A DNA stretch of 64,000 nt from Escherichia coli (GCA_902500205.1 GCA_902500205.1_4868.1), one strand, 5' to 3'. Positions 5,931-53,474 are shown, counted from the first letter of the stretch. A program made the numbers and translations. Notes: generated by a model not told the origin, from the letters alone.

Positions 5931-5951
5931 AGATATATATTACTTAGGTGA
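5931..5951 (+). promoter_or_regulatory. phage promoter-like motif, class 1 (AGATATATATTACTTAGGTGA; contains TATATTAC)
   Basis: One of 8 copies of a conserved oriented motif, about 50 nt upstream of gene 6003. Confidence 0.5.
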
Positions 5952-6002
5952 GCGTTACACGTTAACGCTTTAATCGACTATTACCCAGAAGGAGTATTTA
6001 CA

Positions 6003-6401
6003 ATGACTAACCAACTACGCCAAGACCCGTTTGTTGCCATGATGCTTTGTGCTAAAGCCGAGAGCAACGAAGCCGATTTAATTCGTCTGTTGACTGATGA
6101 CGAATACCTTATCTCCGAGCGCGATAAACGTTTAAAAGAACTCTACAAGCCAGAAACCGGTGAATCGCTCGGCAATCAAGACGCCTGGAAGTTTCTTATT
6201 CTTGTTGCTGATGAAACGTGGCGAGCAAAAAATCCCATCGTCTGTGATATTACAGACCTACCGTACAAATACGGCGGACTCATCACTAGCGACCAGCACC
6301 TTAAAGCGTTCTTTGTTGGTGAAGCAATGCAAGAACTGCAAGATGTTCTTATTACAGCAACGGACACTTTGAAACGTTTGCGCGCCGAGCAGCTAATCTG
6401 A
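6003..6401 (+). CDS. hypothetical protein (132 aa), promoter-proximal
   Basis: Conserved leader AAGGAGTATTTACAATG. Confidence 0.6.
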   Translation: MTNQLRQDPFVAMMLCAKAESNEADLIRLLTDDEYLISERDKRLKELYKPETGESLGNQDAWKFLILVADETWRAKNPIVCDITDLPYKYGGLITSDQHLKAFFVGEAMQELQDVLITATDTLKRLRAEQLI

Positions 6402-6455
6402 TCTCTCAAAAATCACGAATCGTACAAATCCTTTGACTGTGTAGGAAGGAATAAA

Positions 6456-6845
6456 ATGAAAATCGCAGAGGGGTTAGTAGATGCGTGCAGAGACCCATTC
6501 ACGCTGTGGGTTCTTTGTGGCTTGCGCCGAGACGATCGTTTCGGTGAGTTTGTTCGAAATCCAGATGCTTTACTAAGCTTCGTAGAAAGCGAGGAGAAGC
6601 GTTTAGAGGAGATTAAAGAGGAAAGTAGTACCCTTACACCAGATATGGTGGTTTATAGCCGTATGACGTCACACAGGTGGCGTACGACCCATCGGCTGAA
6701 GGGAACCTCAATGAAGGAATTGATTGAAGGGTTATCAAAGGCGCTTTCGTCTGATAACATTATCTGGCCGGTGTTGTATACCAACGAAGACCATTCTGAT
6801 AACGTGAAGGTTACACTGACACGTTGTTATCACACATTCTCGTAG
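6456..6845 (+). CDS. hypothetical protein (129 aa)
   Basis: AGGAAGG upstream of ATG. Confidence 0.55.
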   Translation: MKIAEGLVDACRDPFTLWVLCGLRRDDRFGEFVRNPDALLSFVESEEKRLEEIKEESSTLTPDMVVYSRMTSHRWRTTHRLKGTSMKELIEGLSKALSSDNIIWPVLYTNEDHSDNVKVTLTRCYHTFS

Positions 6846-6879
6846 TAGTTAATCGACCATTACCGTAAGGAATATTTAC

Positions 6880-7551
6880 ATGCAGGGCACTGAACTCAAC
6901 AAACTTTGGGAAAAACTGGTTCGTCAATTCCGCGACTTCTATCGATATACCGATAGCGCGCATCGCATGGATCACATCAACTCAGTTAAATCAAATGCGA
7001 TTCGTATCGCGTATATGCTTGGGCAAACCGAACACCTGAAGCTGATACTGATTGCGGTGGCAGCTCACGATATCTTCTCTACCAAAGAAGACCGCGCGTC
7101 ACACCACATCAAAGGGTATAGCTGGATACTGGATAACAAGCCAGTGCTCAAACGTAAGTATAAACTTACCGATGATGAATGTTTGACGATTGCCCATGCA
7201 GTCTTAGAACACCGCAGTTCTCACAAAGGGAACTACAACGGGATTGTCTCTGAGATAGTTGCCGCAGCTGACCGCGGTATACCGTCTGTAGATGACGTGA
7301 GCAATTACATGCACCGTTCTTATCTGTTTGCCCGTGAACAGGGTAAAAGTAAAGGCGATGCAAAATTCCATGCCGTTGGTCACGTCCAACAGAAGTTCGG
7401 ACGCAACGGTATTAGTAATGTCCCTAGTTGGTACGGTACGCTCTTCGCAGAGCGCATTCTGGAACGCAGGGATTTCGTGGAGCAGCTAGATATTAGCTAT
7501 TTCACAGATACCATTATCGACGACCTCGAAGCTCGTCTTTCACACGATTAA
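6880..7551 (+). CDS. putative HD-domain phosphohydrolase
   Basis: H..HD..H..H..D pattern (SAHRMDH, AAHDIFS, HHIKG, AAADRG); conserved leader AAGGAATATTTACATG. Confidence 0.4.
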   Translation: MQGTELNKLWEKLVRQFRDFYRYTDSAHRMDHINSVKSNAIRIAYMLGQTEHLKLILIAVAAHDIFSTKEDRASHHIKGYSWILDNKPVLKRKYKLTDDECLTIAHAVLEHRSSHKGNYNGIVSEIVAAADRGIPSVDDVSNYMHRSYLFAREQGKSKGDAKFHAVGHVQQKFGRNGISNVPSWYGTLFAERILERRDFVEQLDISYFTDTIIDDLEARLSHD

Positions 7552-7577
7552 TCACACTGACCTTAAGGAATATTAAG

Positions 7578-9955: not shown

Positions 9956-12001
9956 TTAGCTCTCCCGACGGTAAACTTTGATAGTGGTGTTGAACTGGGT
10001 GAGCAGCACACCGCCTTCAGCGATCAGGTCCAGCGTCACAGAGTAACCATTGGATTTATCGTCTGCAGTGAAGTACGCCTTCGGAGTGACGACAGCAACG
10101 TTATCGAGACGGCCTTCCAGACGTTCGATAATTTTGTTCTCAATCATCTTCGCACGTTCATCATCCGTCATGGCCGCTTCGCCAGACATGTCCGCCCATA
10201 CACGGTCGGAAACACGATAGACGTAGGTCATCATGAAGTTGAACAGGGCGTTGTTCAGTACAGAACGATCTTCGCTGTAGATTGACTGAATCGCCGGAAT
10301 GAACAAGCGATAGTAGTCGTAGGAACGGGCAGTGATCAGCGACACATCCCAGTCAGACGCATACACTTCGTTGCCTTTCCACGGCATACTCAGGTCAGTC
10401 AGATCTTCGATAATCGTCAGTTCGCCACGGCTGAAACGATAAGCCGGTTTTGCACGACCGTCGCCTGCACCCAGGTACTTCGAGAAGAAGTTCGCCAGGG
10501 AGTAGTTCATCGGAACAGGCTTCTTGTAGGAAGAGTTCTTGATGAACGCCGATTGGCCGGTGACCATACCACGTGCAGCCGGAGTGCCGTAATAGGCAGA
10601 TTCCGGTACCGCTGTGATCAATTCGATCAGGGCGATTTTTGCACTTTCTTCTGTCTGCTCATCGTTACGACCTTGGTTGTAAACGTGAGTCGCCAGCGTC
10701 AAGAAGGTGTTACGTGAACGACCGATGAAGTTCACGAGCGCAGCTTTAGTATCGAAGCTAAAGCCAGAGTCCCAGAAACAACCCAGCGAGTATTTCAGCT
10801 CGTTGTCGTAACGGACTTTACCGCCATCCGGGAACAGCAGCATTTCACGGCGAACGAGTTCGTCGTAAACGTCGTTGTTCATGGTACCATCGCTACCACC
10901 TTGCAGGTAGTGGATGTTGGATGCGGAGAACACAACTTTACCGGTTTCAGTAGCCGGGTTTACCTGAAGACCATCGTAAGGCTGGCCCAGTAAATCATAG
11001 CCGCCAAAGATGTCAACCATATACGGGTCAGCAGGCGCATCAGTTGTGATAGCGGCCTGAGCCAAGCCCAGTACAGTTTCCAGGTTCTCGCGATACAGAT
11101 AGAACTGCTCGAAAGGACCATAATCTGGCAGCTCGCCAATGTCAGGCATCGTCTGACGATATGCATCCGCAACAACAACTTCGAAGTCGAGTTGCGTTCT
11201 CATCGGCTGATAGTATGCATCGGGCTTAAAGCTAAAATTGATGCTACTCATGCCAGTGAGAGTTTTCCACACTACCGGAGAAGTCACGCCTGCCAGGGTT
11301 TCGAACCATTGCAGGGTGTAAACACGACCACCGACTTCATTTTGATAGGAGGAGGTCAGAGCCGGGCTGGATTTCTCGCTGAGTGGGATCAGTTTGAAAC
11401 CGAAACCGTTGACGTCAGCACCCGCATACGGGCCTGCGATATCGAACAACGGATACAGCTTCGATTTCGTGCCGCCTTCGCCAGTCATCGTCCCCTCGAT
11501 AACCACACCTGCGCCGATGGCCGGGGTAGTTTCGTCGATTACGACAGAACGGAAGACGATTACCAAACCGTCAACTTGTTCTTTGATCTTGGGCTTGCCC
11601 GAGTTGTCGTACTGAACGATCCCGTTGCTGTCGCGTTCGTAGGACGGAACTTTCGTTTCGAGTACGTCGGCGAATACGCGAACACTTGCGGTTTTCGCAT
11701 CTTCAGGGATCAAGCGCTGATACATACACTCGTTTGCGTTAGCGTTGAACATCGCCTGATAGGGCGTGTTGAACGTCGCGTAGGGGCCTCGCAAGTCAAA
11801 GACATTGCGACCAAGCAGAGACAGTGCATTATCCCCGGTTAACGGGAACGCCTCGTTGTCTACCCCGCGCGCGGCAAAGGTGAAGATCAGCGGCTTATGA
11901 ATTGCGTCACCCGTAGGGGTACGCACAAGCTCGGGGACAGAGTTATCCTGCCAACCTTGCTTGTTATTCAACGGCGCGCCGTTTCGTGGAATAAAAGTCA
12001 T
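9956..12001 (-). CDS. abundant virion structural protein, candidate tail sheath (681 aa)
   Basis: Size typical of contractile-tail sheaths; strongly optimised codons; followed by a tube-sized gene and a strong terminator. Confidence 0.4.
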   Translation of the reverse strand: MTFIPRNGAPLNNKQGWQDNSVPELVRTPTGDAIHKPLIFTFAARGVDNEAFPLTGDNALSLLGRNVFDLRGPYATFNTPYQAMFNANANECMYQRLIPEDAKTASVRVFADVLETKVPSYERDSNGIVQYDNSGKPKIKEQVDGLVIVFRSVVIDETTPAIGAGVVIEGTMTGEGGTKSKLYPLFDIAGPYAGADVNGFGFKLIPLSEKSSPALTSSYQNEVGGRVYTLQWFETLAGVTSPVVWKTLTGMSSINFSFKPDAYYQPMRTQLDFEVVVADAYRQTMPDIGELPDYGPFEQFYLYRENLETVLGLAQAAITTDAPADPYMVDIFGGYDLLGQPYDGLQVNPATETGKVVFSASNIHYLQGGSDGTMNNDVYDELVRREMLLFPDGGKVRYDNELKYSLGCFWDSGFSFDTKAALVNFIGRSRNTFLTLATHVYNQGRNDEQTEESAKIALIELITAVPESAYYGTPAARGMVTGQSAFIKNSSYKKPVPMNYSLANFFSKYLGAGDGRAKPAYRFSRGELTIIEDLTDLSMPWKGNEVYASDWDVSLITARSYDYYRLFIPAIQSIYSEDRSVLNNALFNFMMTYVYRVSDRVWADMSGEAAMTDDERAKMIENKIIERLEGRLDNVAVVTPKAYFTADDKSNGYSVTLDLIAEGGVLLTQFNTTIKVYRRES

Positions 12002-19544: not shown

Positions 19545-19600
19545 AAAAAATACGACGTAGCCACCTCTCCGAAACTGGAGAGGTGGCATTTTATTTTATT
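19545..19600. terminator. bidirectional intrinsic terminator
   Basis: Hairpin CCACCTCTCC-GAAA-CTGGAGAGGTGG with A-run before and T-run after. Confidence 0.7.
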
Positions 19601-20972
19601 TCTGCAAAGAGCGGATCAAGAAGTACAACAACAACGCATTACGCAAAGCGGCCAATGCGGCTTCATGGCGGATATGTGTTTCTCGTGCAGCCAGTTTCTC
19701 AATCCGTTCACGCAACGATAACACGTATGGGTTAGGGGACTTCGAAGCCTGGTACAACGAACGCATACGCAGTAGAACCGTACTCGCATCGTTAAAGTTC
19801 AGACGAGAAGTAACAATTTCGTCGAACGCGTGCGATAGCGTGTCCTCCATGATAGCGTTAATCTCATCACGCTTTTTGCCAAGTGGTAGACTTGCAATAT
19901 ACGCCAGCAAAGTTTTCAGTGCCGCGGGAGATGCTTTGGGTACTAGCTCCAACACCACTTTTGCTAATTGCTCTTTGTAAAGATTGTTGATATCGTAAGA
20001 CGCATCAAACAGATTCTGCTTAGCGATATCCAGTGCACCCACTTTGTCACGGATAATCGACTCGCCATCTAACTCAATTCGGGTTGACTGCGTAATCACA
20101 CGACTGTTATCACGACGCACTTTGTCAAGCACCGCGTAATAGTCCTTCACGGTTTGTTTGGTACGGGTGTTCAGGTCGGTGATAAAACGCAATACCAGGT
20201 CTGGCGTATCAAAACGTTTAACCGCGTCGTAGTTTGGGTACTCCGGAGAACAGAAGTATTCTGAACGCTCCTGCATGTGCAGACCCCAGTTGCCTAAACG
20301 ACGGATATCGAACTTTAACGACAACATCGAGTATGCGGCGTCGGCGGCGGCCATATCGACCGGCTTGGGGAAGAAGTGATAATATATACTGGAGTAGAAT
20401 TTGAATTGCAGAAGCGTTACTAACGATACCGCCGCGGCGTGGATTTCACGATCGGCGAATTTCGGCATCATTCGATGTAGAGTATACACCGTAGAGAGGT
20501 TATACGGATCACCCGCCACTGCCCAGTCGGTGTTAATCGTACCCGATTCTTTAATCATCTCGAACAGATAATCTTCATCCACTTTCAAGACATCTTCAAA
20601 AAAGCGGTTACGGTCAGAATCGTAGAAACGAATGGTGTGGACGCCTAATAGATTAGACCCTAGCCACTCCACATTGCCTTCACGTTTAAGAATGTTATCC
20701 ACGTGAAGTTGAATTTGCTTTGCAAAACGACGATCGATAACGACGTGTTTAAAACATTCGTCAAACACTTTACGTAATCGGTCATTCTTCATGGCTTCTG
20801 CAGCAACTACCAGCCCCATCGGAACGTAGCCGCCAAAACCGTAGTCGTAATACAAGCCCGTAGAATACGTGTCATCGTCGAAGAATGGGTCACGTCCGAA
20901 TGATTCGACGGCAACCTTCACTCCGGTATCACGATAACAACCGGCACTGAAATCATAAACCAATTCAGACAT
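19596..20972 (-). CDS. hypothetical protein (458 aa)
   Basis: Long minus-strand ORF followed by a terminator. Confidence 0.6.
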   Translation of the reverse strand: MSELVYDFSAGCYRDTGVKVAVESFGRDPFFDDDTYSTGLYYDYGFGGYVPMGLVVAAEAMKNDRLRKVFDECFKHVVIDRRFAKQIQLHVDNILKREGNVEWLGSNLLGVHTIRFYDSDRNRFFEDVLKVDEDYLFEMIKESGTINTDWAVAGDPYNLSTVYTLHRMMPKFADREIHAAAVSLVTLLQFKFYSSIYYHFFPKPVDMAAADAAYSMLSLKFDIRRLGNWGLHMQERSEYFCSPEYPNYDAVKRFDTPDLVLRFITDLNTRTKQTVKDYYAVLDKVRRDNSRVITQSTRIELDGESIIRDKVGALDIAKQNLFDASYDINNLYKEQLAKVVLELVPKASPAALKTLLAYIASLPLGKKRDEINAIMEDTLSHAFDEIVTSRLNFNDASTVLLRMRSLYQASKSPNPYVLSLRERIEKLAARETHIRHEAALAALRNALLLYFLIRSLQK

Positions 20973-21044
20973 GGCGCTAAACCTCTAAAAATTTACGGAT
21001 ATATGTTATCATACTGAGAGTATACCTGAAGGAGATTTTACCCA

Positions 21045-24467: not shown

Positions 24468-25043
24468 ATGAACTTGTATCGCGTCGGGTTTTACCGAAAC
24501 GAGATGCCTGAATCGGTTTTGGTTGTCTTAGCCGAAAACGAGGAGCAGGCCAAATCCTTCTGGCCGGTTAGCGCAGAGCGTCCAGCGGTTGCGTGCTGCT
24601 ACGACGGCGCTGTGTCTACCCCGATGGTTACGCCTGGGGTGGTTCTGAAGCAAGGCCGATGGGAAGATTACTCCCATCCCGGTTTGGAGTTTGTTTCCGA
24701 ACCTGCCAGACATTCCTGGGAATTTCCCTCAGGCAACACCGAGACGTATTTCGGATTTCAGGTTAAACAACCTTCGACGCTCAAACTGTACCTGGTGTAC
24801 AGCGACGCCGCTACCGAAGACTACGTCGATTCCGGAATCATCGTCGGGGCAACAACCCCTGCTGCGGCATTCGCACATTGGGACGGTGATAAACCCGGAA
24901 TCGTTTCGGTCTGTGAGCTACCACTTGAAGCCGGTTTGGTTACGAACATCAAGTGTGAGCAAGGCCAGGAGCTGACTTGGATGCGCCAGGATTACCTGAC
25001 GGAAACGACATTCGAATACACACCGAGGAGGGTGACCCAATGA
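24468..25043 (+). CDS. hypothetical protein, translationally coupled to the HslV-like peptidase; N-terminus paralogous to gene 25766
   Basis: ATGA overlap with the next gene; shares MNLY...VV.A..EEQA N-terminal pattern with 25766..26008. Confidence 0.55.
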   Translation: MNLYRVGFYRNEMPESVLVVLAENEEQAKSFWPVSAERPAVACCYDGAVSTPMVTPGVVLKQGRWEDYSHPGLEFVSEPARHSWEFPSGNTETYFGFQVKQPSTLKLYLVYSDAATEDYVDSGIIVGATTPAAAFAHWDGDKPGIVSVCELPLEAGLVTNIKCEQGQELTWMRQDYLTETTFEYTPRRVTQ

Positions 25044-39683: not shown

Positions 39684-39735
39684 GGCAGACTCCTTAGATT
39701 CCACATAGGAAGTCAGTCACAGTCAAAAATATCTC

Positions 39736-39756
39736 AGATTGATATTATCTATGTGA
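39736..39756 (+). promoter_or_regulatory. phage promoter-like motif, class 1 (AGATTGATATTATCTATGTGA)
   Basis: First of two tandem motif copies upstream of gene 39890. Confidence 0.5.
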
Positions 39757-39831
39757 CAGTTCCTGAGAAATGTCTGGACTATGTGCCTTGTAAGTAAGCG
39801 ACGGCGTACTTGCATTCCATGGAATTACAGG

Positions 39832-39849
39832 CAGATATTATCTCTGCGA
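39832..39849 (+). promoter_or_regulatory. phage promoter-like motif, class 1 (CAGATATTATCTCTGCGA)
   Basis: Second tandem copy, about 40 nt upstream of ATG 39890. Confidence 0.45.
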
Positions 39850-39889
39850 ACCGAACTATGATTGCAATCACTATTAAGGAATATTTAAA

Positions 39890-41743
39890 ATGGTAAAAAT
39901 CGTTGACTCTAACAACAACGCTCAGCAGAACAACACTCAGACTCAAGACACCGCACCACTGGGCGGTCTGGGCAACGAGACTGTAAAAGTGCAAACTGCT
40001 GTGCCGGGTACTTCTACTGTCAGCCAATTCGATAACGCATTTGGCATCCGCAACATCAGCACCTATGCAATGCACTTCGTCAACCTCCTGGACGAGCTGA
40101 AGAAAAGCAACGAATACCTCAACGCGTTCCGCTGGGGCACCATCGCCGGCGTGGGTAACGAAATGGGTTCCGCGGCGTATGTCGCAGGCCAGTGGCAGGG
40201 CCACTGGCTGTATGGTATCATCTTCTTTGAACGCGGTCAGTCTCTGCGTCTGAAAGAAACTACCAACAACGGCCAGGAAGACTACTACACCATCACTGAA
40301 CTGTTCAACAAAGACGTGCTGGCAGTAGTACAGAAAAACATCATGGAAGCGCATGGTCTGACCAATGCGAACTTCATGATCATCAACTCCGTACCAGACC
40401 TGGGTAAAGTTCTGGATGCTGAGTGGGCACGTACTCTGATGGGTCAGATGATGATGGGCATCTTCGGTCGTATCGCAGGCTACCTGGGTACGCTGAACCT
40501 GCGTAAGCATGACCGTTATCAGGCTGCAGTAATGCCGCTGGAAGATGGTGCGGTTGTGGATGCTAACGGCCACGCACAGCGTGCTGATTTCGCAATCACC
40601 GTTGAACACAGCCCAAGCAACGTAACCGACGCCACTCCGACTCTGCTGGACACCAATCAGGTACAGGTGTATCCGCGTGTATCCGGTACTGGTTTCGTCA
40701 ATATGCGTTTCACCGGTCAGAAGCCTGTCGTTAACGGCGTCTACGACCTGAAACAGCTGCAGGCTGAAATCGTAGTAAGTCTGATCGATTCTCAAACTGA
40801 AGGTGCAATGGCACCGTATGAACGTCAACTGCTGCTGCTGGCTGCATTTGCAGAAATCGCGGCAATCGGTGGCTGGCGTGACCTGTTTGTGAAACGTCTG
40901 AACAAACAAGATCGCAAGTTCTCCCGTGTGGCAGAATACCTGTCCTGGGGCGCTGACGCTCGTCCTGACGTATCCAAAATCGACGGTAGCCGTGAAGCTA
41001 TCGAAGGTTGCCTGGATATGTTCGCACCGCGTGAAGCAGCACTGGTAGTTAGCCATCGTGCCGGTAACGGCCTGGGTGGTCTGTCTACTTTGCTGTCTGA
41101 AATTGCGGTCGGTTACGACAACTCTCTGAAACAGCTGCTCGCTATTCTGAATTCCATGTCCCCGCGTGATCAGAACGGCGAAGTTGTTGCAGCGACCAGC
41201 TTCACTGCAGTATTTGCTTCTGCACTGAAAGCACAGCTGGGCGATGCCTTCAATGGTACCATCCATTGCAGCCACATCGTGAAAGCAGCCGTACCGACTG
41301 TTTCCGGTGTTTACACCGGTACTGCACAGAAACGTAGCTTCCAGGATATGGACCTGATTTCCGTTGTTACCAAACTGGGTGATAACGCGAACGACGTCTA
41401 TAGCTACCTGAACGCACAGTCCTACAGCCACCGTGAACTGAACGAGCGTCAACAGCGTATCTACATGCTGAAACTGGCCGCTTCTCTGTTCGCATCCAAA
41501 GCACCGCAAGCTACCGGTGAATCTCTGGATATGGCTATCAACCCGATCTTCGGTAAATGCCTGCTGGACTTCGTCCGTAACAACTGCACCTGGTCTATGA
41601 CTGGTGTAAATGCCTACAACACGATGGCGACCTCTCTGTTCTTCAACAACGGTGGGGAAGACTTCACGCTGTCTGGCAACGGCCTGTCTGCAAGCGGTTC
41701 CGATTTCGGTCTGGGCGTGACTCTGAGCAACTTCAAACTGTAA
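39890..41743 (+). CDS. abundant protein; candidate phage-nucleus shell protein (chimallin) or major capsid protein (617 aa)
   Basis: Strongest codon optimisation in the window; two tandem promoter motifs and conserved leader AAGGAATATTTAAAATG upstream; strong terminator downstream; size fits chimallins (about 600-630 aa). Confidence 0.45.
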   Translation: MVKIVDSNNNAQQNNTQTQDTAPLGGLGNETVKVQTAVPGTSTVSQFDNAFGIRNISTYAMHFVNLLDELKKSNEYLNAFRWGTIAGVGNEMGSAAYVAGQWQGHWLYGIIFFERGQSLRLKETTNNGQEDYYTITELFNKDVLAVVQKNIMEAHGLTNANFMIINSVPDLGKVLDAEWARTLMGQMMMGIFGRIAGYLGTLNLRKHDRYQAAVMPLEDGAVVDANGHAQRADFAITVEHSPSNVTDATPTLLDTNQVQVYPRVSGTGFVNMRFTGQKPVVNGVYDLKQLQAEIVVSLIDSQTEGAMAPYERQLLLLAAFAEIAAIGGWRDLFVKRLNKQDRKFSRVAEYLSWGADARPDVSKIDGSREAIEGCLDMFAPREAALVVSHRAGNGLGGLSTLLSEIAVGYDNSLKQLLAILNSMSPRDQNGEVVAATSFTAVFASALKAQLGDAFNGTIHCSHIVKAAVPTVSGVYTGTAQKRSFQDMDLISVVTKLGDNANDVYSYLNAQSYSHRELNERQQRIYMLKLAASLFASKAPQATGESLDMAINPIFGKCLLDFVRNNCTWSMTGVNAYNTMATSLFFNNGGEDFTLSGNGLSASGSDFGLGVTLSNFKL

Positions 41744-41825: not shown

Positions 41826-43777
41826 GTGAGAAAGGTACCAAAATTCTACGGAATATCCGGCCGGTTGGTTAGTCAGGATAACTATTTGTCCGATTTGCAA
41901 ATAGAAGCTGCTGCCAAAGGTATTAAACCACCCACTATTATTAACGATGTCGCCGTTAACGGGGATGCGATCGAGGTTGCTGAACTTATCGATCGCATGG
42001 TACAGAACAGAATCGTTGACGAAGAACTGAACTCTGCACCGATTTGTAGTTTGGATTGTCCGGCACCGATCGCGCATCGTTACAATCTCGGTTGTAAGTG
42101 TCCGACGTGTGGCTATGTTGTAACTGAACATCGAATTGAATCCGATGTCTGGTTACGTGCACCCGATGAAATGGGTAACTTCGTCAACCCACGATTCTGG
42201 GCAATGTTCAATGCTTTCTTTAATAGCAAGTTGAAGAAGTTTGAACGTAACAAGGTCACTATCGAACGCGGTAATGACTTGATGATGTGGATGATTGACC
42301 CGTATTACCGTATAGAAGAACCAGACGGTAAACGCGCACATGCTGTGAAACGTGTATTGGAAGAACATGGTTTCGTTCGTGGCTTGCGCAATCTGGTTGA
42401 TAACCACGTTAGTATCTTTAACATCCTTACCACGCCAGAAGCCTGGAAGGAAATCTTCGCACCTAATCGGCATAACGCCGCTGAAGGTGAACGCTTACGT
42501 TTACAATGGAAGGAGCTATTCGAAACGCAACGCCATGCATTCTTCCCAAGACACTTACCGCTAATCTCCTCTAAGCTTATCGTTACTGAGGAAGGTCGTC
42601 GTGGTGTCATGGTAGACCCAGTGTTCACGGGTGCTATCGATGCGGTGAAAAATATCGCGTTACTTTATACGCGGCGTAAAGCGATCGAACCACGTTTTCT
42701 GATTAGTCGCGCTTTGAAAGCCAACCGTCAGTTAACGTACTTCCACATGGACTTCCGTCGTGAGTCTATGGAAGGTAAACCGGGTGACTATCGTGCGAAA
42801 TTGGGTTCTACCCATATCCCATTCGGTGGTCGTGCAACCATCTCACCTATCTCAGAACCACACGATGCCTGGAAGTTAAAAGCACCATGGCGTTGGATGG
42901 TTGGGTTGATGTCGACCCACATCGAGAACAAACTGCTACGACGGGGTTATTCGTCACGGCAATGTGAACGTATCGTTGCAAAAGCGGCAATGCAGTATGA
43001 CCCGCTTGTAGATGAAATCTTTAAAGAACTGATTCGTGAATCCCCAGGCGGTCTTGGGATCATGGTCATACCGCTACGTAACCCAACGCTGGTACAGTTG
43101 TCTATTCAAACGCTGTACATCGATGAAGTTGTTACCGATGTTAACCAGTGTTCGCTGCGTATCTCTGACCGTGTGATCAAGATGGCTAACGGTTCGAAAA
43201 GAGCCCCATCGGACGGGAAACCTCTGATGCGTATTCTCCTGAAATGCTGGGAAACCCTAAAGCGTATCTACCAGAAATGGGGACGAAAGTCTGAAACAAC
43301 AGATACGATGGCCTACGCTAAACAATACTGCTAACGGTTGTGATAATGGGTAATCAGCAGCGAAGCCTCGTGAGAGGAACGTTCAACGACTATCGCTGAA
43401 ATGCGAGTAGGGGTCCCAGTGGACTTCGAAGTGGGAGAACACCTAAGGCGATAGCTATGGTGAAGATATAGTCTGTGCCTTATCGAGAGATAAGGAGGGT
43501 GTCTTAGCACACCTGCTGTATACGGAAACGGTATACGGTGGACAAACAGGATTTCGATGGCGACCAGTTCCAGGTACGTTTGCCAGTCGATGAAACTGAG
43601 ATGAAGTTGGCGCTCCAATTCCGTCCAGATAACGGCTTTATGTCTTCTACTGATGTGGACCGCGTAGAACACGGCATGGTTTTACATAACGAGCTAATCA
43701 GTATGCAGAACCAGTTCCTTATTGAAGCAGATGAGGATGATGAAGAAGGCATTCCGTTGGAAGCGGTGATGGGCTAA
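41826..43777 (+). CDS. RNA polymerase beta-prime subunit, N-terminal fragment, interrupted by a group I intron (exon 1 from 41826 to about 43166, exon 2 from about 43532 to 43777)
   Basis: Zn-finger-like CSLDC..CKCPTC; NPTLVQLSIQ matches beta-prime APTLHRLGIQ; exon 2 carries DFDGDQFQVRLP (catalytic NADFDGDQ); GTG start with GAGG upstream. Confidence 0.7.
43167..43531 (+). ncRNA. group I self-splicing intron (boundaries approximate)
   Basis: Canonical core elements: Q-like AATCAGCAGC (43351), R GTTCAACGACTA (43381..43392), S AAGATATAGTC (43463..43473, identical to the Tetrahymena S element), P9 hairpin CCTTATC..GATAAGG; 5' exon can end in T and intron in G with frame restored. Confidence 0.7.
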
Positions 43778-48206: not shown

Positions 48207-48292
48207 GAAACAAAATAAAAAATACGCCCAAGGGAAACCTTGGGCTATTAACGCTTATGCGTGGTCCTGCAACACACACTGTAAGAAGATTT

Positions 48293-48313
48293 AGATAGAT
48301 ATTATCTCAGTGC
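48293..48313 (+). promoter_or_regulatory. phage promoter-like motif, class 1 (TAGATAGATATTATCTCAGTG)
   Basis: Conserved motif copy about 30 nt upstream of ATG 48342. Confidence 0.5.
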
Positions 48314-48341
48314 AATCGACTATTCGCGGAGTTCAACTATA

Positions 48342-49976
48342 ATGAAAATTATGAAGATTAAAGACCGGATGACAATCGAGCATCGTGGTCAAGAGGTCAC
48401 ATTTATTGGCTTACGTTATCGGAAGGATAACAACGCACCCGACTACATCACTGTTAAAGGTAAACAGATTGCACGCGACAACATTCTCTTCATGGAATTA
48501 CAACGCGTGTGGGATTATTTAACGCCAGACGAACAAGATGAACTGTTCATGGCGTATCTGATGCTGGACGAGCTGGCAAACGAATCGACGGAAACGCAGC
48601 GTAAGCACATGCCGAAGATTGTGCAGACGATTGCGAAGTTCCACAAGGCCGAAGTGTATCGTAAGCTGTATCCCATCGATAAGCTGTGGATTCCGCAGAA
48701 CATGGAAGATACGCACGATGAAATGAACAGTAATTATCCGGAAGCGATGACGTACATTCGTCCGGACTATTACGAGTTGTTGATACTGGTCCTGATGATT
48801 AAACCGTATATTCCGGTGTTCCTCACCATGGGGACGTTCCCGATAGGTAAGAACTTGCCAATCGAAACACATCGGAAAATGGTGTACAATCTGACATACT
48901 GTCTGGAGATGCTTCAAGACACAGAAGTCATGTCTTTACCTGCTATTCCGAAACTGCGTGGGTTCCTACAGACAGTGATGGAAAAGGTAGAAAAAGAACT
49001 GGCAAACAAAGGTACGAACAGCACCAGTTTGTCGGTACTGGCTACGGTGCGGGGCTATGGCACGGATATGATGGAAGATTATATCCTGGCGTATGCTATT
49101 ATTAAATTGTTGGCTGTCCGTGAAGTCGGTGGTGAATTACCGATTGAAATCATGGTTAACAACAATATCGTCACCGGCATGTATTTTCTGGTTAAACAAG
49201 AGATTGAAACAGGTTTTGCAAACAAAATCTCTAACCAGCCGGTGCTGTTAAAAGCGCATCCGGAAAGTGTGGTATTCAATGGCGAAAAGGGTAAGATAAA
49301 CGCCATGGATTTGGTGCAGGCACGTTCTCCTGCACAGATGAAAGAATACGTCCGTACCGAGTACGTATTTAAAGAATACCGCTCTTTCTTGAAAACAATG
49401 CGTCTGGATAATGCCGCTCCAGCAGATGTTAAGTTATTGATTGATTCGCAACTGGCAACACATGACGGTCCTGTCTATACGTTGCACGAATGGTTAGTCG
49501 CATTAGCACTCCATCGTAGCGTGCATTATAAGACGTATACTGAATGTGGACCAGAAGCGTTTCGCTACGGTATGGCGTTGGCACAGGCAACTTATCTCAA
49601 TTATGGAATGTATGACGTTGCGCAACTGTTAAGTTGCAATATGGTGCGTTCTGAGATGTCTGCCGGTTATGCAGCCGACCCAATTCGATCTGAACTCAAA
49701 GCAGATTTAGATAGATATTATCTTCAGGAGTATCGCAACCCGCGTAATCTCGAACCGCAATCTACACCACGGGAATCACTGACCTTGTTACACAAGGATC
49801 ACATCAACCCGTATCTGTTCCATCTCAGGGCTACACCAGAAGCAGCTGCGCTGCTGAAGTGTGAGACGGATCAGCCAAACTATATACCTCACTTGTCACT
49901 GCACAATAGCCTGGCGGAGTTTATGGTGTTGAATGCACGTCGCAAGTTAGAAGAAGTTGAATGGTTTAATTCTTAA
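48342..49976 (+). CDS. hypothetical protein (544 aa)
   Basis: Promoter motif upstream; long ORF. Confidence 0.6.
   Translation: MKIMKIKDRMTIEHRGQEVTFIGLRYRKDNNAPDYITVKGKQIARDNILFMELQRVWDYLTPDEQDELFMAYLMLDELANESTETQRKHMPKIVQTIAKFHKAEVYRKLYPIDKLWIPQNMEDTHDEMNSNYPEAMTYIRPDYYELLILVLMIKPYIPVFLTMGTFPIGKNLPIETHRKMVYNLTYCLEMLQDTEVMSLPAIPKLRGFLQTVMEKVEKELANKGTNSTSLSVLATVRGYGTDMMEDYILAYAIIKLLAVREVGGELPIEIMVNNNIVTGMYFLVKQEIETGFANKISNQPVLLKAHPESVVFNGEKGKINAMDLVQARSPAQMKEYVRTEYVFKEYRSFLKTMRLDNAAPADVKLLIDSQLATHDGPVYTLHEWLVALALHRSVHYKTYTECGPEAFRYGMALAQATYLNYGMYDVAQLLSCNMVRSEMSAGYAADPIRSELKADLDRYYLQEYRNPRNLEPQSTPRESLTLLHKDHINPYLFHLRATPEAAALLKCETDQPNYIPHLSLHNSLAEFMVLNARRKLEEVEWFNS
49709..49729 (+). promoter_or_regulatory. 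phage promoter-like motif, class 1, intragenic (TAGATAGATATTATCTTCAGG)
   Basis: Full-length motif copy inside the 3' end of CDS 48342..49976, about 260 nt upstream of gene 49989. Confidence 0.4.
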
Positions 49977-49988: not shown

Positions 49989-51689
49989 ATGCAGCTTGTA
50001 AATCTACTGATGTATCCGGTCTACGATGTTCCAGAGCAAGTTCGTCGCCGCATCGGCTTTAACGCATCGACGGGTGCACTGGATGACTTAGCAGCAGCGG
50101 TTGAACTGGGCGGGGAAAAAGCTGTGGGAACACAGCAGTATCAAGAAGCATTATCTGCCATCGTGGGCTTCGATGGCACCCAGAATGGTTTTGAGCGTCC
50201 ATTCATCAACGTGTCCGATGATGACAATCGTCCTGTACAGTTCCAATGGGAATCACGTGATACCGGTATCTTTAACTTCGTGGCGGTGTTTATTGCTAAA
50301 CCTCTGAATGCAACACGCACTCAGGAAACGCAATACATCGTCTCCGGTTATACCAGTCAGGCAGAAACCAGCCTGGGTAGCTTGCTGCCGGACGATATGG
50401 TGTTGTACATTAACGACATCTACGGCTTACAGGCAACGTATACACACGATGCCCTGGGCGGCAAAACATTGAACCCAGACTCATTCCGTCTACTGGATAA
50501 CTACGTTTTATCGAAAGCGTTGTCTGTTGAAGGTCAAACAGAAAGTACGGTAGATATCATTTCGATCGCGAAAGCGGCGGACATGGTAAAACGTATTGAA
50601 ATGAATAGCGGTGAGAAGTTCGTCCCAACGAGCGACTCTGTGCTATCCGCAACCAGTAGCTCTGCACCACAGTTGATGGTATCCCAACTCCAGCGTCCAG
50701 AAAACTACGTATCTGCCATCAGTAATGCGTATCTGGCAAGCTCTGGGGTAGATACCGAACTCGGTAGCGTGGAAAGCTTCTTTGCAGGTAATAACTCCAT
50801 CGGCGTTGAATCTGAATTGAAGCAACGTGGTGTTATCCGTAACTACAGCAACCACGAACTGATTGCTGCGATGCGTCAAGCACTCCAGAACGGGATGTCT
50901 GATGTATCTGGCGGCTGGAAAGCAACCAGTAAGGCGACGTTCCGTTTGGCTGATTTGCGTAATGCGATTGTCAACCCAATGCGGTTGGATGAATGTATCC
51001 GTGAATCGCTGGCGCTGGCAAGTCGCCGTGGGTTGGGTGCAGGGCTGGTTAACCAAACCGACCACTGGATTGGACGTAATGGCTTCTCCACGCAGGGTAG
51101 TCTAGTTGCGTATGATCTGGCTATGTCTATCGGGCCGATTATGTCACGTAACCTGATTGGTGAAGTGAGCTTTGTCTTTGATAACCGCAACACAGATATC
51201 ATGATAGAGCCTACGCTGGAAGTTATTCCTAACTCAGTCAGCAGCATCACGCACCATCAGTTACCTGCTGCTTTAGGTCGTCGTTTCTTGCAGAACATGA
51301 AAGAAGCGATGGTTCAGGTTACTAAACATAACCATATTCGCTGCCACATGCTGGTCACCGCATTGTTGGGGACCGTTACTCGTATTGAAATCCGTGTCGA
51401 CGACGAACCGCTGGAATATTACACCTACGCGTCGTTTATGCAATTCCGTCTCCATACCGGCAACACCACCGATCTCAAATACGTTGGTGAGCTGGCACAG
51501 AACACCGCAACGCTGTTGAAAGCCGTGGAAGAAGGTTATACAGAATTCGAGAAAGGCCAAGGCCGGGGTCGAATGCTATCTAACATTCCAACTAACACAG
51601 GTGGCTTAGATCCTCTTGGAGGTCTTGACCTGGGTGGTGGCTTAGGCGGTATAGGCGGAAACGGACTCGGCAACGGTCTCATTGATTAA
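49989..51689 (+). CDS. hypothetical protein with Gly-rich low-complexity C-terminal tail (566 aa)
   Basis: Conserved leader TAAGGAGTATTTAAAATG; C-terminus GGLDPLGGLDLGGGLGGIGGNGLGNGL. Confidence 0.6.
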   Translation: MQLVNLLMYPVYDVPEQVRRRIGFNASTGALDDLAAAVELGGEKAVGTQQYQEALSAIVGFDGTQNGFERPFINVSDDDNRPVQFQWESRDTGIFNFVAVFIAKPLNATRTQETQYIVSGYTSQAETSLGSLLPDDMVLYINDIYGLQATYTHDALGGKTLNPDSFRLLDNYVLSKALSVEGQTESTVDIISIAKAADMVKRIEMNSGEKFVPTSDSVLSATSSSAPQLMVSQLQRPENYVSAISNAYLASSGVDTELGSVESFFAGNNSIGVESELKQRGVIRNYSNHELIAAMRQALQNGMSDVSGGWKATSKATFRLADLRNAIVNPMRLDECIRESLALASRRGLGAGLVNQTDHWIGRNGFSTQGSLVAYDLAMSIGPIMSRNLIGEVSFVFDNRNTDIMIEPTLEVIPNSVSSITHHQLPAALGRRFLQNMKEAMVQVTKHNHIRCHMLVTALLGTVTRIEIRVDDEPLEYYTYASFMQFRLHTGNTTDLKYVGELAQNTATLLKAVEEGYTEFEKGQGRGRMLSNIPTNTGGLDPLGGLDLGGGLGGIGGNGLGNGLID

Positions 51690-51701
51690 GGATTATTAAC
51701 C

Positions 51702-53069
51702 ATGAAATTGATTGAATTCTACCGTTCGTTTCTGACCTCGCTCGGATACGGATTCGAAGGTGACATGTTGACCATCGATGATGGTCATCCGGCAATGTTC
51801 ACCTACAACAAAGTGAAGCGCCGCTTGGTGCTTCCAACTGCAGCGATGATTAAGCGTGGGTTGGAAGATGACGAAGGTAGTGAATGTCATGCGTTCCACC
51901 CACTGTGTGAATCGGTACTGGCTGGCGAATCTGGAACGATTCGTTTCCTGAAGAAAGCCATCAGCGCGAACCTCTTCCTGAAAAGCTTCGAGTTAATCGA
52001 TGCGATTTTGGAAACAGCAGCCGAAGGAAAAAATATCCGTCTGGCATCGTACAAGAAGTTTTTAAGCGATGTGGTTTGTGCTGACCTGAAAGATCCAACG
52101 ATGGATAAGAAACTGGTTCAGAGCTGGCACGCAGTGAAGAACTACGTTTACGGGTTGCTGGAAGAAGATAAAAAGACAAAGATCACCAGTATCTTCATCT
52201 CCAGCGATATGACCATTGAAGGTATCAAATATATCCGCGTGGCGAACTACAAACACATGTTTGAAGAAGAGTCACTGGATGGTACGGCAACATTCTTCGG
52301 TGCCAAGCTCCAGCGTAAGCAGGATAAGGTCATTATCTTTAACCTGCTAACTGCAGTGTTTGGTTGGTATCCTTCGGTTACGGGTTCTAACGATCCGCGT
52401 CCGTACTTCGGTTCTTTGGCACGCGGTTGGGCACAATACGTGACCAACTACAATCAAGTGGTTCGTGGTCTGCGTGACCACACTCCACTGCGTCCGTTAG
52501 AAGAAGAATGGATTGGCCAACTGGATAACATGAGCGTTTATGATAACGTTATCCAAACTCTGCCGTATAATACCGGCCCACGTAACGATCAGGCAACAGA
52601 CACCACCGCAACGGATTTCCGTATCGGGCGTACACCTGCCGGTACAAAGCCGGTCGTTGCTTTAGCTTCTCAACAAGCTCCGCAGGAAAATCTTGATCTC
52701 AACGATCCGGTAAACTATTTCCGTGCGAAGAAAGCGCAACAGGCGTCTTCAGCTAATAGCTTCAATGCGTTAGCACCGAAGATTCAGGAAGCGCTGCGTG
52801 AGAACAACGGCCATTTACCGAAAGGGACAATTAAAGAACTGTCTCTCGGTGAAGCGCTGCGTGGTAATGCGGTGACGAAAGAAAGTGGTCTGGGTTCTGG
52901 TTTGCTGGGAAGTAGTAATAATCTCTTGGGGGGTAGCACGCAGTTGGGCGGCGGTAGCACCAACCTCTTAGGAGGGAGTAGTGACGTGTTAGGTGGTCTG
53001 GGTGGTTTAGGTGGCGGAAGTAGCAGCATTTTAGGCAACCTACCATTCTCATCAGCTAATTTACGTTAA
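51702..53069 (+). CDS. hypothetical protein with Gly/Ser/Leu-rich low-complexity C-terminal tail (455 aa)
   Basis: C-terminal repeats of LLGG/LGG over the last 80 residues or so; terminator downstream. Confidence 0.6.
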   Translation: MKLIEFYRSFLTSLGYGFEGDMLTIDDGHPAMFTYNKVKRRLVLPTAAMIKRGLEDDEGSECHAFHPLCESVLAGESGTIRFLKKAISANLFLKSFELIDAILETAAEGKNIRLASYKKFLSDVVCADLKDPTMDKKLVQSWHAVKNYVYGLLEEDKKTKITSIFISSDMTIEGIKYIRVANYKHMFEEESLDGTATFFGAKLQRKQDKVIIFNLLTAVFGWYPSVTGSNDPRPYFGSLARGWAQYVTNYNQVVRGLRDHTPLRPLEEEWIGQLDNMSVYDNVIQTLPYNTGPRNDQATDTTATDFRIGRTPAGTKPVVALASQQAPQENLDLNDPVNYFRAKKAQQASSANSFNALAPKIQEALRENNGHLPKGTIKELSLGEALRGNAVTKESGLGSGLLGSSNNLLGGSTQLGGGSTNLLGGSSDVLGGLGGLGGGSSSILGNLPFSSANLR

Positions 53070-53079
53070 GCGTTAGAAA

Positions 53080-53107
53080 GAAGGGACTGGGCGTCCCTTC
53101 TTTTTTT
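53080..53107. terminator. intrinsic terminator (probably bidirectional)
   Basis: Hairpin GAAGGGAC-TGGG-CGTCCCTTC plus T-run. Confidence 0.7.
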
Positions 53108-53430
53108 CAAGATTCTACGATAGTCGATAAGATGTTACTTACCACACCGACACTAGGAACCAATAAGGTTCTTATCTCTGGCGTGAAATCAAACGGAGTA
53201 GAAATTCCGTTCATTAACATCATCGGATAAATAATACTATTATCGTACTGTTTGAGACGACAGTACGCGTAGAAACTGTGTACCTCTGGGTAGGCATATT
53301 TTGGGTCAACAACTTCTTCTGTAGTATCTGGGTGTTTGCGAAGGAAGTCTGTATAGTCATGCAACACCTTATACTTGGTCGAATCAGGCGAAGGTATTAT
53401 TTCGGATAAGGTAGCAAATTTATCTAGCAT
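53107..53430 (-). CDS. hypothetical protein (107 aa)
   Basis: AGGAGA upstream of the minus-strand ATG 53430. Confidence 0.55.
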   Translation of the reverse strand: MLDKFATLSEIIPSPDSTKYKVLHDYTDFLRKHPDTTEEVVDPKYAYPEVHSFYAYCRLKQYDNSIIYPMMLMNGISTPFDFTPEIRTLLVPSVGVVSNILSTIVES

Positions 53431-53450
53431 CGTCTCTCCTTAAAATAAAA

Positions 53451-53474
53451 CAGATAGATATTATCTTACCGAGG
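53451..53474 (+). promoter_or_regulatory. phage promoter-like motif, class 1 (CAGATAGATATTATCTTACCGAGG)
   Basis: Conserved motif copy about 25 nt upstream of the RNAP beta gene start. Confidence 0.5.

Follow-up and report, generated by a model that had tools for sequence, protein, structure and literature searches.

The closest described counterparts of the element reported here are the early promoters of jumbo phages that encode their own RNA polymerases (RNAPs), and one review holds that such a motif, centred near -10, marks the early operons of every RNAP-encoding jumbo phage (PMC7598289). In phiKZ, the early promoters share the consensus TATATTAC, number 28-32, and are read by the virion RNAP (vRNAP) (Ceyssens 2014 cited in PMC7598289; dRNA-seq in PMC8244752), their motif combining an extended -10 element with T-rich sequence upstream of -19 (PMC8244752). 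For Bacillus phage AR9, 41 early promoters with the consensus AAATATATATTAT-(6N)-G(+1) have been mapped by dRNA-seq and are chloramphenicol insensitive (PMC5312081). [quoted passage not shown] Predicted early consensuses have been published for Pseudomonas phage OBP, BSHAWWWWWTTTYARRYAKATATTATYWWADTG, TTTYARRYAKATATTATYWWADTG (PMC7058600 table 2, citing Cornelissen 2012), and for Klebsiella phage N1M2, in which 31 predicted copies precede early-type genes, including that of an RNAP beta subunit (PMC7058600). The consensuses of N1M2 and of 201phi2-1, the latter ...TTTRARR-BTATATTACDWHDGTG, finish at the same G as the element described below (PMC7058600).

A recurrent element in a single orientation

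Judged by its sequence, the window (the whole stretch analysed, 64,000 nucleotides) derives from an SPN3US-like jumbo phage, a chimallivirus (Seoulvirus), with 96-99% identity to SPN3US over gp241-gp264 plus gp1-gp40. The SPN3US virion packages a multisubunit RNAP composed of gp42, gp218, gp240, gp241, and gp244 (PMC5105663), and by the window's identity to SPN3US the phage sampled here would carry a virion-packaged multisubunit RNAP as well. For SPN3US-like phages, the literature that could be searched yielded neither 5'-end maps nor data on timing or on the effects of rifampicin or chloramphenicol.

The window contains 15 matches to AGATAGATATTAYCT with up to three mismatches, whereas dinucleotide-preserving shuffles contain 2.08 on average and never more than 6. 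A position weight matrix derived from the copies across the genome gives the eight copies of the preliminary description 29.7-44.2 bits, compared with at most 12.1 bits in 20 Markov-1 random windows; these scores are partly circular, as the training set consists of homologous sites, so the match count against shuffles is the independent statistic. All eight copies are present on the plus strand (5931, 28544, 31508, 39736, 39829, 48293, 49709, and 53452). Five had been placed exactly, and three (given as 31509, 39832, and 53451) were off by 1-3 nt, a difference of register only. Scanning the window with the matrix adds a ninth copy at 20997 (37.4 bits), which had been missed.

The full element spans ~35 nt and reads aaAaWatttc-AGATAGATATTAYCT-N4-G. 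Its A-/T-rich upstream extension, aaAaWatttc, lies directly 5' of AGAT. The core (G/T)ATATTAY is found in 8 of the 9 window copies and in 19 of the 22 copies of the complete SPN3US genome, the remainder having ATGTTAT or ATGTCAT, and exactly 6 nt past ATATTAY stands a G that is invariant in all of them (9/9 and 22/22). The trailing GTGA claimed earlier occurs in only four of the eight copies, and what holds of it is this single G, the probable +1. Six to seven copies form a subfamily, AGATATATATTAC(C/T)TAGGTGAGAG, near-identical over ~26 nt.

In a genome-wide search, as proposed in the preliminary description, all 22 SPN3US copies are on the plus strand and point the way the gene behind them is read, and 21 of them fall in the 6.4% of the genome that is intergenic; the motif 12-mers are the commonest strand-specific 12-mers of that genome (seven on the plus strand, none on the minus). 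None of the 22 precedes an annotated virion structural or vRNAP gene. The predicted +1 G falls 26-261 nt before the next start codon, with a median of about 52; for the complete SPN3US genome a range of 26-233 nt was obtained. Measured from motif start in the window, six copies are 45-74 nt from the start codon, a tandem pair ahead of the ORF at 39890 is 61 and 154 nt from it, and 49709, which lies within ORF 48342-49976, is 280 nt from the next one.

The nine copies and the genes behind them

Copy 1 (5919-5953, plus strand; core AGATATATATTACTT, 5931-5945; 39.9 bits) follows an intrinsic terminator (5865-5906, plus strand) that closes the upstream operon and consists of a bulged hairpin at 5865-5897 and a U-run (-18.3 kcal/mol, z = -5.45). 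Its predicted +1 G, at 5950, is 53 nt before the ATG of ORF 6003-6401, a homolog of SPN3US gp249, and the predicted transcript would begin with a 5' hairpin. Copy 3 (28532-28566, plus strand; core AGATAGATATTACCT, 28544-28558; 44.2 bits) is likewise preceded by an intrinsic terminator (28485-28526, plus strand), in which the hairpin GTCCTCACTC-TTCG-GAGTGAGGAC at 28485-28508 is followed by a T-run (-21 kcal/mol, z = -4.73). Its predicted +1 G at 28563 is 55 nt before ORF 28618-29568 (gp5 homolog), and the hairpin at this +1 is kept in relatives. These are the two of nine copies, 5931 and 28544, that clearly sit just after a terminator; the earlier claim that copies often do so holds clearly for this minority alone. 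The hairpin that precedes copy 48293 lacks a U-run, and the loci at 20997, 31508, 39736/39829, and 53452 are divergent intergenic regions, each with a single minus-strand gene before it.

Copy 2 (20985-21019, plus strand; core GGATATATGTTATCA, 20997-21011; 37.4 bits), whose SPN3US equivalent is at 238181, follows minus-strand ORF 19596-20972, with a predicted +1 G at 21016, 29 nt before ORF 21045-22178 (gp263 homolog). Copy 4 (31496-31530, plus strand; core GCATAGATATTATCT, 31508-31522; 36.7 bits) follows minus-strand ORF 30577-31419, with a predicted +1 G at 31527, 26 nt before ORF 31553-31873 (gp9 homolog).

The tandem pair comprises the distal copy 5 (39724-39758, plus strand; core AGATTGATATTATCT, 39736-39750; 40.6 bits) and the proximal copy 6 (39817-39851, plus strand; core AGGCAGATATTATCT, 39829-39843; 29.7 bits), with predicted +1 G residues at 39755 and 39848, 135 and 42 nt before the ATG at 39890. 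The gene behind them (39890-41743, plus strand; SPN3US gp22, 617 amino acids) is a 64% amino acid ortholog of Asesino gp039, the phage-nucleus shell protein ChmA (PMC11724907), and infected cells are described as containing the 617-amino-acid gp22 in abundance (PMC7552025). Sharing its transcription unit is the gene for the beta'-N subunit of the non-virion RNAP (nvRNAP) (41826-43334, plus strand), the ortholog of Asesino gp040, nvRNAP beta'1 (PMC11724907). The 3' end of the beta'-N ORF runs into a group I intron (43174-43495).

Copies 7 and 8 are both associated with ORF 48342-49976 (plus strand; gp30), a homolog of phiKZ gp68 (BLASTP E = 1e-13, 20% identity over 444 amino acids), the fifth, sigma-like nvRNAP subunit (PMC7598289, PMC13282480). 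Copy 7 (48281-48315, plus strand; core AGATAGATATTATCT, 48293-48307; 36.6 bits) lies upstream, with a predicted +1 G at 48312, 30 nt before the ORF. Copy 8 (49697-49731, plus strand; the same core at 49709-49723; 33.7 bits) lies in the 3' part of the coding sequence, where the core encodes ..LDRYYLQEY.., and its predicted +1 G at 49728 is 261 nt before ORF 49989-51689 (gp31). Copy 9 (53440-53474, plus strand; the same core at 53452-53466; 34.2 bits) follows minus-strand ORF 53107-53430, and its predicted +1 G at 53471 is 26 nt before the gene for nvRNAP beta (53497-55734), which is followed by that for beta'-C (55734-57839), both on the plus strand; SPN3US gp35 has been identified as nvRNAP beta' (PMC5105663). 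With ChmA and beta'-N, the gp68-like subunit, and nvRNAP beta/beta'-C all behind copies, the downstream genes fit an early class as initially proposed, where "early" is assigned from gene function. Because the nvRNAP is unable to produce the first molecules of itself, its genes need another polymerase.

We compared SPN3US with six relatives, the seven phages representing five genera. The same six positions are occupied in SPAsTU, Asesino, Huxley, and Kwan, five of them in CR5, and four in Phobos; the scan threshold was not exceeded ahead of the gp5 ortholog in CR5 or Phobos, or at gp8/gp9 in Phobos. The tandem pair ahead of ChmA is kept in all seven phages, while its flanks diverge. Within its gene, synonymous-codon identity peaks at the intragenic copy 8 (0.90, compared with 0.47 gene-wide), which takes the top 6 of 542 windows.

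Resemblance to described early promoters

The phiKZ-type reading offered in the preliminary description is supported, each computational test of it having had the expected outcome. The consensus nearly matches those of OBP and N1M2, it shares its geometry with AR9, and the SPN3US matrix finds TATATTAC sites in phiKZ. The matrix matches in phiKZ (AF399011) are at 45563, before PHIKZ054, and at 57979, before PHIKZ068, and they carry the same A-/T-rich extension. Within the window, TATATTAC at 5931 and GATATTAC at 28544 are present as described. The two phages share the A-rich stretch, the T-rich element upstream of -19, AGAT, (T/G)ATATTAY, and the G at equal spacing, as well as copies ahead of the chimallin and gp68 genes and a comparable copy number (22 in SPN3US, 28-32 in phiKZ). 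They differ in that the copies here favour GATATTATCT over TATATTACT as core, with TATATTAC confined to the subfamily of six to seven copies; in that one motif occurs twice in tandem ahead of the chimallin gene here, whereas the phiKZ gene has an early promoter and a middle one; and in that the phiKZ sites are experimentally mapped and those here predicted.

OBP and N1M2 match the element nearly base for base across its whole length, including TTTY, ARRYAKATATTATY, and the terminal (D)TG, although they differ in host range and genus and their proteins are only distantly related; because both sets are bioinformatic predictions, this resemblance adds no experimental support. AR9 has an identical ATATTAT core, an identical 6-nt spacing to the initiating G, and an injected, multisubunit vRNAP, but its DNA contains uracil, it forms no phage nucleus, it lies outside the Chimalliviridae, and its upstream part is AAATATAT instead of TTTC-AGATAG. 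In 201phi2-1, some nvRNAP genes lack a nearby early promoter, whereas in the window all have one. Coliphage N4 also makes its first transcripts with an injected virion RNAP, which is single-subunit and reads a template-strand hairpin with a 5-7 bp stem and a 3-nt loop. The dyad AGATA-T-TATCT cannot form a hairpin of the N4 type, since its loop would be only 1 nt, and it is not kept as a dyad in relatives.

We consider it highly probable, at about 0.88, that the motif set represents the early promoters of an SPN3US-like, nucleus-forming jumbo phage, read by the injected vRNAP. Elements of this kind are already known from phiKZ, OBP, and AR9, which makes the finding solid but ordinary. Homology with phiKZ and AR9 suggests which enzyme reads the sites, that they act early, and where exactly +1 lies. 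Hairpins whose first paired base is at +1 to +3 occur in 9 of the 22 predicted transcripts, compared with 3.75% of random G-starting 30-mers, which supports the G as +1; if so, TTTC at -23 to -20 fits the T-rich element of phiKZ. The spacing of the G, the position of TTTC, and the hairpins starting at the G together suggest an element centred near -10. In the mechanism that we propose, the vRNAP (gp42/gp218/gp240/gp241/gp244) would be injected with the DNA and would recognize an asymmetric ~35-nt element, with an A-rich part near -30, TTTC at -23 to -20, AGAT at -19 to -16, and ATATTAY at -13 to -7, and would start the transcript at the G that follows the core by 6 nt. Transcription would require neither host RNAP nor new protein synthesis, and the first wave would yield ChmA from two tandem promoters, nvRNAP beta'N, the gp68-like factor, beta, and beta'C, along with many small proteins of unknown function.

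Other readings of the element

An unlikely alternative is that the motif is a middle-class promoter read by the nvRNAP, its genes being switched on only after the first wave of expression. There is precedent in that phiKZ gp54 (chimallin) is served by a middle promoter besides its early one (PMC8244752) and in that not all 201phi2-1 nvRNAP genes are near an early promoter, some being middle driven (PMC11512511), so the ChmA-proximal or the intragenic copy could belong to another temporal class despite its motif. However, the nvRNAP genes of the window are all behind the motif, including that of the gp68-like factor required for nvRNAP promoter recognition, and the nvRNAP cannot be required for its own initial synthesis. 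The match, moreover, is to the early consensuses of phiKZ, AR9, and OBP and not to middle or late ones (PMC7058600, PMC5312081, PMC7598289), and a different candidate late motif, TATGACC, is found before the tail sheath gene and others. It is very improbable that the element is instead an operator for a dimeric phage regulator, with the promoter elsewhere. The core AGATA-T-TATCT is partly palindromic (an 11-nt near-palindrome), making an additional protein-binding role possible, its mirror image scores 13-21 bits on the minus strand at several sites, and the SPN3US "putative transcriptional regulator" gp101 is itself behind a copy. Against such an operator, conservation is asymmetric over ~35 nt, with the A-rich stretch and TTTC upstream and the invariant G downstream, and all 22 copies have one orientation. 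CR5 and Phobos keep ATATTAT but no longer have the left arm AGATA (AAACATATATTATCT, ACATATATGTTATCT), the TATATTAC subfamily is non-palindromic, no minus-strand mirror match exceeds 12 bits in any of the six relatives, and no other promoter-like motif lies between the sites and their genes.

More improbable still is recognition by Salmonella or E. coli RNAP of host sigma-70 extended -10 promoters, a reading that draws on the TATTAT core being one mismatch from TATAAT. A TTGACA-like -35 hexamer is absent at 16-18 nt, and a sigma-70 scan calls none of the nine copies, in agreement with the earlier remark that the motif is unlike sigma-70 promoters; sigma-70-like sites were also not enriched over shuffle expectation (13 vs 20.5, 21 vs 24.7, and 27 vs 24.4). 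Conservation of the flanks, TTTC-AGAT and the +1 G, has no meaning in sigma-70 terms, and related phages transcribe without host RNAP (PMC7598289, PMC8244752). The near-identity of AGATATATATTAC(C/T)TAGGTGAGAG copies does suggest duplication of a promoter-leader cassette, but a dispersed repeat devoid of function, for instance a mobile-element remnant or a recombination product, is scarcely credible given their fixed orientation and position before start codons, the retention of orthologous sites across five genera with diverging flanks, and the synonymous-site constraint on the copy inside a gene. The conservation data effectively refute this reading.

Distribution and consensus of the element

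The recurrent element of about 35 nt in the window is best supported as a member of a well-known class, the early promoters read by the virion-packaged, injected RNA polymerase (vRNAP) of phiKZ-like phages, of which it is a new, unmapped case. With up to three mismatches, AGATAGATATTAYCT was matched 15 times in the window, against 2.08 times (maximum 6) in dinucleotide-preserving shuffles, and alignment of the copies revealed a conserved element much longer than 15 nt. A preliminary description, drawn from sequence alone, had proposed eight phiKZ-type early promoters ending in GTGA. All eight are present, with cores starting at 5931, 28544, 31508, 39736 and 39829 (in tandem), 48293, 49709 and 53452, three of them shifted in register by 1-3 nt; in place of the trailing GTGA, the alignment shows one invariant G exactly 6 nt 3' of ATATTAY. 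A position weight matrix built on the genome-wide copy set and then used to scan the window separated nine sites at 30-44 bits from all else on both strands (at most 13.4 bits), the best score in random Markov sequences being 12.1 bits. The ninth site, overlooked earlier, lies at 20997, before ORF 21045-22178. The window showed no enrichment of sigma-70-like sites, and no such site coincided with a motif copy.

To place these copies in a whole genome, we used that of SPN3US (JN641803), a phiKZ-related, nucleus-forming jumbo phage. By BLASTN, window positions 1-23226 correspond to SPN3US 217346-240413 and positions 23284-63998 to 1-38477, at 95-99% identity; as both ends of JN641803 are matched, the window runs across the point at which that GenBank record is arbitrarily opened, covering gp241-gp264 and gp1-gp40 (SPN3US gene numbers). 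Escherichia phage EC001 is 99.3% identical to a 6-kb stretch around the gene for the 617-aa protein gp22 (39890-41743), and about 30 Salmonella phages of species Seoulvirus SPN3US are similarly close to it.

The most frequent strand-specific 12-mers of the SPN3US genome are those of the motif (seven on the plus strand, none on the minus strand), and the only others of like frequency belong to terminator T-runs and the ribosome-binding site. The matrix scan is bimodal, with 22 sites clearly above background, all on the plus strand and 21 of them within the noncoding 6.4% of the genome. Their consensus is aaAaWatttc-AGATAGATATTAtCT-na(G)t-G-Aga, and the invariant G, present in all 22, lies 26-261 nt (median about 52) upstream of the next start codon. 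The genes that follow are gp5, 9, 22 (two copies), 30, 31, 34, 55, 66, 76 (two copies), 99, 101, 112, 125, 135, 175, 180, 209, 221, 249, and 263. No annotated virion structural protein gene lies behind any of the 22 sites, and the vRNAP, capsid, portal, sheath, and terminase genes and all 33 minus-strand genes have no copy in front. This genome-wide search thus found copies placed in relation to gene starts and not scattered independently of them.

The core is partly palindromic. On the minus strand, the divergent intergenic regions gp21/gp22 and gp220/gp221 (window 39740-39754; SPN3US 15632 and 191620) contain mirror images of it that score 13-21 bits and lie at a plausible distance from minus-strand start codons. 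Bidirectional use of the core for these divergent genes is nevertheless improbable. No mirror match above 12 bits occurs in six related phages, and the mirror G arises simply as the complement of the C that precedes AGAT in the consensus, so that the mirror-image core is probably not a second, opposed promoter.

Conservation and kinship with known early promoters

Syntenic regions of 36-42 kb from six phages were scanned with the SPN3US matrix: SPAsTU (Seoulvirus), Asesino (Erskinevirus), Huxley (Machinavirus), Kwan (Wellingtonvirus), and CR5 and Phobos (Derbicusvirus), whose nuclear-shell proteins (chimallin, ChmA) share 78%, 64%, 53%, 51%, and about 43% amino acid identity, respectively, with that of the window. 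The scan found copies, every one on the plus strand, in orthologous places. A copy precedes the gp5 ortholog in SPAsTU, Asesino, Huxley, and Kwan, with none above the scan threshold there in CR5 and Phobos, and one occupies the gp8/gp9 divergent gap in every relative but Phobos. Orthologous copies also form the tandem pair before chmA, stand before and inside the gp68-like gene gp30 (48342-49976), and lie in the gp33/gp34 gap, upstream of the beta gene of the non-virion RNA polymerase (nvRNAP). In the gp21-chmA intergenic alignment, the two tandem copies are conserved islands in all seven phages. The left part of the element drifts in the most distant phages (AAACATATATTATCT, ACATATATGTTATCT) while ATAT(A/G/T)TTATY and the G are retained, a pattern that speaks against a symmetric operator. 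Scanning IMG/VR viral contigs for exact 15-mers was uninformative, yielding mostly single chance matches and known jumbo-phage genomes.

A review describes, for all jumbo phages that encode an RNAP, a conserved motif at presumed early operons, AT-rich, about 10 nt long, and with its centre near -10, which proved to be the early promoter wherever transcripts were profiled (PMC7598289). Consensuses have been tabulated in the N1M2 paper (PMC7058600): predicted ones for OBP (BSHAWWWWWTTTYARRYAKATATTATYWWADTG), N1M2 (...TTTCARRYAKATATTATYWAAGTGWA), and 201phi2-1 (...TTTRARR-BTATATTACDWHDGTG), together with TATATTAC for phiKZ. The SPN3US consensus TTTC-AGATAGATATTATCT-NAGT-G agrees with the predicted OBP string at essentially every position. 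Core and spacing are also the same as in the early promoters of AR9, AAATATATATTAT-(6N)-G with G as +1, which were mapped by dRNA-seq and are active in chloramphenicol (PMC5312081). For phiKZ, dRNA-seq gave an extended -10 box and, upstream of -19, a T-rich element (PMC8244752); with +1 placed at the invariant G of SPN3US, ATATTAY would occupy -13 to -7 and TTTC -23 to -20, matching that layout. Run over 50 kb of phiKZ, the SPN3US matrix recovers TATATTAC sites that lie before PHIKZ054 (chimallin) and PHIKZ068, among others, and whose flanks are the same (tttgAGATnTATATTACTA-N4-G). A literature search for the motif as a literal string returned no phage paper, and no description of SPN3US promoters or transcription start sites was found in the searchable literature, which left out Lavysh 2016. 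That paper, on the AR9 genome, reportedly lists the early motifs of all jumbo phages that encode an RNAP.

Genome-wide placement, downstream genes, conservation, and consensus match all support the original reading as phiKZ-type early promoters; for those of the SPN3US type, which enzyme reads them, when, and from exactly which +1 is our inference. The consensus comparison shows a vRNAP promoter specificity that appears almost unchanged across the Pseudomonas phages OBP and phiKZ, the Salmonella and Erwinia phages, and even Bacillus AR9, arguing that a very conserved part of vRNAP reads the promoter.

Genes behind the copies

RNAP beta/beta' fragments are encoded by ORFs 41826-43334, 53497-55734, and 55734-57839 (PHROGs), and SPN3US gp35 is the nvRNAP beta' C-terminal subunit (PMC5105663). 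Assigning the 617-aa protein gp22 was less direct. It had no match among PDB chain sequences by phmmer or a seven-sequence profile, even at E = 1-10, and none in Pfam; its PHROG match is labeled "unknown function," and BLASTP against phiKZ gp54 was not significant. It does share 64% amino acid identity and synteny with Asesino gp039, identified by GFP tagging as ChmA, next to which gp040 is nvRNAP beta'1 (PMC11724907). The literature disagrees on the SPN3US chimallin: Laughlin 2022 calls it "gp244" (PMC9365700), a number that in JN641803 belongs to the 240-aa vRNAP beta'C (PMC5105663). Orthology to the Asesino protein and synteny point to gp22 as the probable shell protein, and on these grounds we regard the assignment as settled. 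The abundance that the preliminary description assumed for this protein is borne out, gp22 having been described as abundant in infected cells (PMC7552025).

The gp68-like gene encodes a homolog of phiKZ gp68 (E = 1e-13), the fifth nvRNAP subunit, required for promoter recognition (PMC7598289, PMC13282480); gp31 has no similarity to phiKZ gp69. Every nvRNAP component encoded in the window, as well as ChmA, lies directly behind a motif copy, which is the logic of a promoter class working before nvRNAP exists. vRNAP itself is, in SPN3US, a multisubunit enzyme of five polypeptides, gp42, gp218, gp240, gp241, and gp244 (PMC5105663). Once injected, it would bind the asymmetric element, melt the AT-rich core, and start RNA at the G; the resulting transcripts would code for the shell protein, nvRNAP, and first-wave proteins, and nvRNAP would afterwards take over from other promoters.

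The copy at 49709 lies inside the gp68-like gene, where the coding sequence reads ..LDRYYLQEY.. in translation. With the codons of the seven orthologs aligned and scored in nine-codon windows (n = 542), identical-amino-acid pairs use the same codon in 90% of cases across the motif versus 47% gene-wide, and the best six of the 542 windows start within 49689-49704, all overlapping the element (49697-49731). Such a peak is the signature of a second, noncoding constraint, and we predict a conserved internal promoter for gp31/gp32.

What is new here is modest and leaves the current picture of jumbo-phage transcription unaltered, filling in an expected piece: the 22-site catalogue, the conservation across five genera of the tandem pair upstream of chmA, a synonymously constrained, predicted intragenic promoter, and a leader cassette combining a +1 hairpin with AAUCGACUAU. 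The catalogue of probable early promoters in the SPN3US group is complete and testable (9 in the window, 22 in the genome) and concerns the main genetic model among enterobacterial nucleus-forming jumbo phages. It defines a first wave comprising the nuclear-shell protein, all nvRNAP subunits of the window, and about 20 uncharacterized operons, which are host-takeover candidates; the motif also offers a ready-made handle for early-expressed reporters in engineered phages.

Leader sequences and further features of the window

A predicted RNA stem-loop whose first paired base falls at +1 to +3 occurs at 9 of the 22 SPN3US copies (4427, 56294, 65413, 92540, 94239, 113986, 161919, 165687, and 223277), compared to 18 of 480 random G-starting 30-mers (3.75%), and in the window at 5950-5970 and 28563-28582. 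That these hairpins start at +1 to +3 lends some independent support to the +1 assignment at the invariant G. Stem sequences differ among copies, and SPAsTU, Asesino, and Huxley retain the hairpin before the gp5 ortholog, its stem altered by compensatory or G-U changes; the PHIKZ054 early promoter of phiKZ likewise has a hairpin downstream.

Another conserved sequence, the box (A)ATCGACTAT(TA), is present in 5' leaders, where it stands 21-28 nt ahead of the start codon and mostly 3' of an early-promoter copy (window 5975-5984, 28597-28603, and 48314-48323; JN641803 4480, 23834, 56338, 65458, 94283, 166647, 167595, and 223321). AATCGACTAT occurs eight times on the plus strand and never on the minus strand; two instances of the box (gp182, gp184) have no early motif upstream, and the one before the gp68-like gene is kept in SPAsTU and Asesino and absent in more distant relatives. 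The box might serve as a signal in the RNA or as an additional element of the promoter.

Chimallivirus first-wave mRNAs are made inside the early infection vesicle. The copies might be more than promoters, some of them heading a modular "early leader cassette" that carries an RNA-level signal specific to these mRNAs. About 40% of copies have the look of such a cassette, a promoter with a stem-loop starting exactly at the predicted +1, its structure kept while the stem sequence varies between copies and between phages, and the conserved AAUCGACUAU box stands 21-28 nt before the start codon in about eight cases. We consider this extension unlikely; if true, the signal might serve stabilization, vesicle exit, or privileged translation, and the intragenic gp68-like copy and the tandem pair before chmA would be tuning points of the program.

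Between the tandem copies, a block (G)TAAGCGACGGC(T/G)TAC (window ~39790-39812) is conserved in the alignment in five of seven phages and could form a short hairpin (GTAAGC-GACG-GCTTAC) in the leader of the transcript from the distal copy, with one stem mismatch in the window. Folding of 39800-39835 gave no hairpin; that stretch starts in the loop and lacks the 5' arm (about 39791-39799).

A group I intron at 43174-43495 (+; Rfam, 69 bits, E = 1.6e-15) overlaps the 3' end of the nvRNAP beta'N ORF (41826-43334), where the window has a 363-bp insertion relative to SPN3US, whose gp23 is an uninterrupted 532-aa ORF; the EC001 annotation splits this gene into two CDSs. The helicase gene (57829-60630, +) contains a 1.2-kb in-frame insertion at 58327-59511 that is absent from SPN3US gp36 and carries Hint and LAGLIDADG homing-endonuclease domains; it is an intein. 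The gene-poor stretch at 22.7-27.5 kb, with two insertions relative to SPN3US (24472-25039 and 26783-27042), holds a tRNA-Trp (25624-25699, +; ARAGORN and Rfam) and a weak tRNA-like match (27048-27117, +; Rfam, 36 bits), not called by ARAGORN and annotated "tRNA-OTHER" in SPN3US.

Finally, TATGACC occurs at 12043-12037 (-), 42 nt before the ATG of the tail-sheath ORF 9956-12001 (-), and recurs 30-42 nt upstream of the start codons of several non-early genes; SPN3US instances are at gp65, gp91, gp93, gp109, gp156 (here immediately before the start codon), gp171, and gp256. Its enrichment in the upstream regions from -70 to -12 is 6.3-fold. It is similar to T(-3)ATG(+1), the late promoter of phiKZ, and is a candidate for the core of nvRNAP late promoters in this group of phages.
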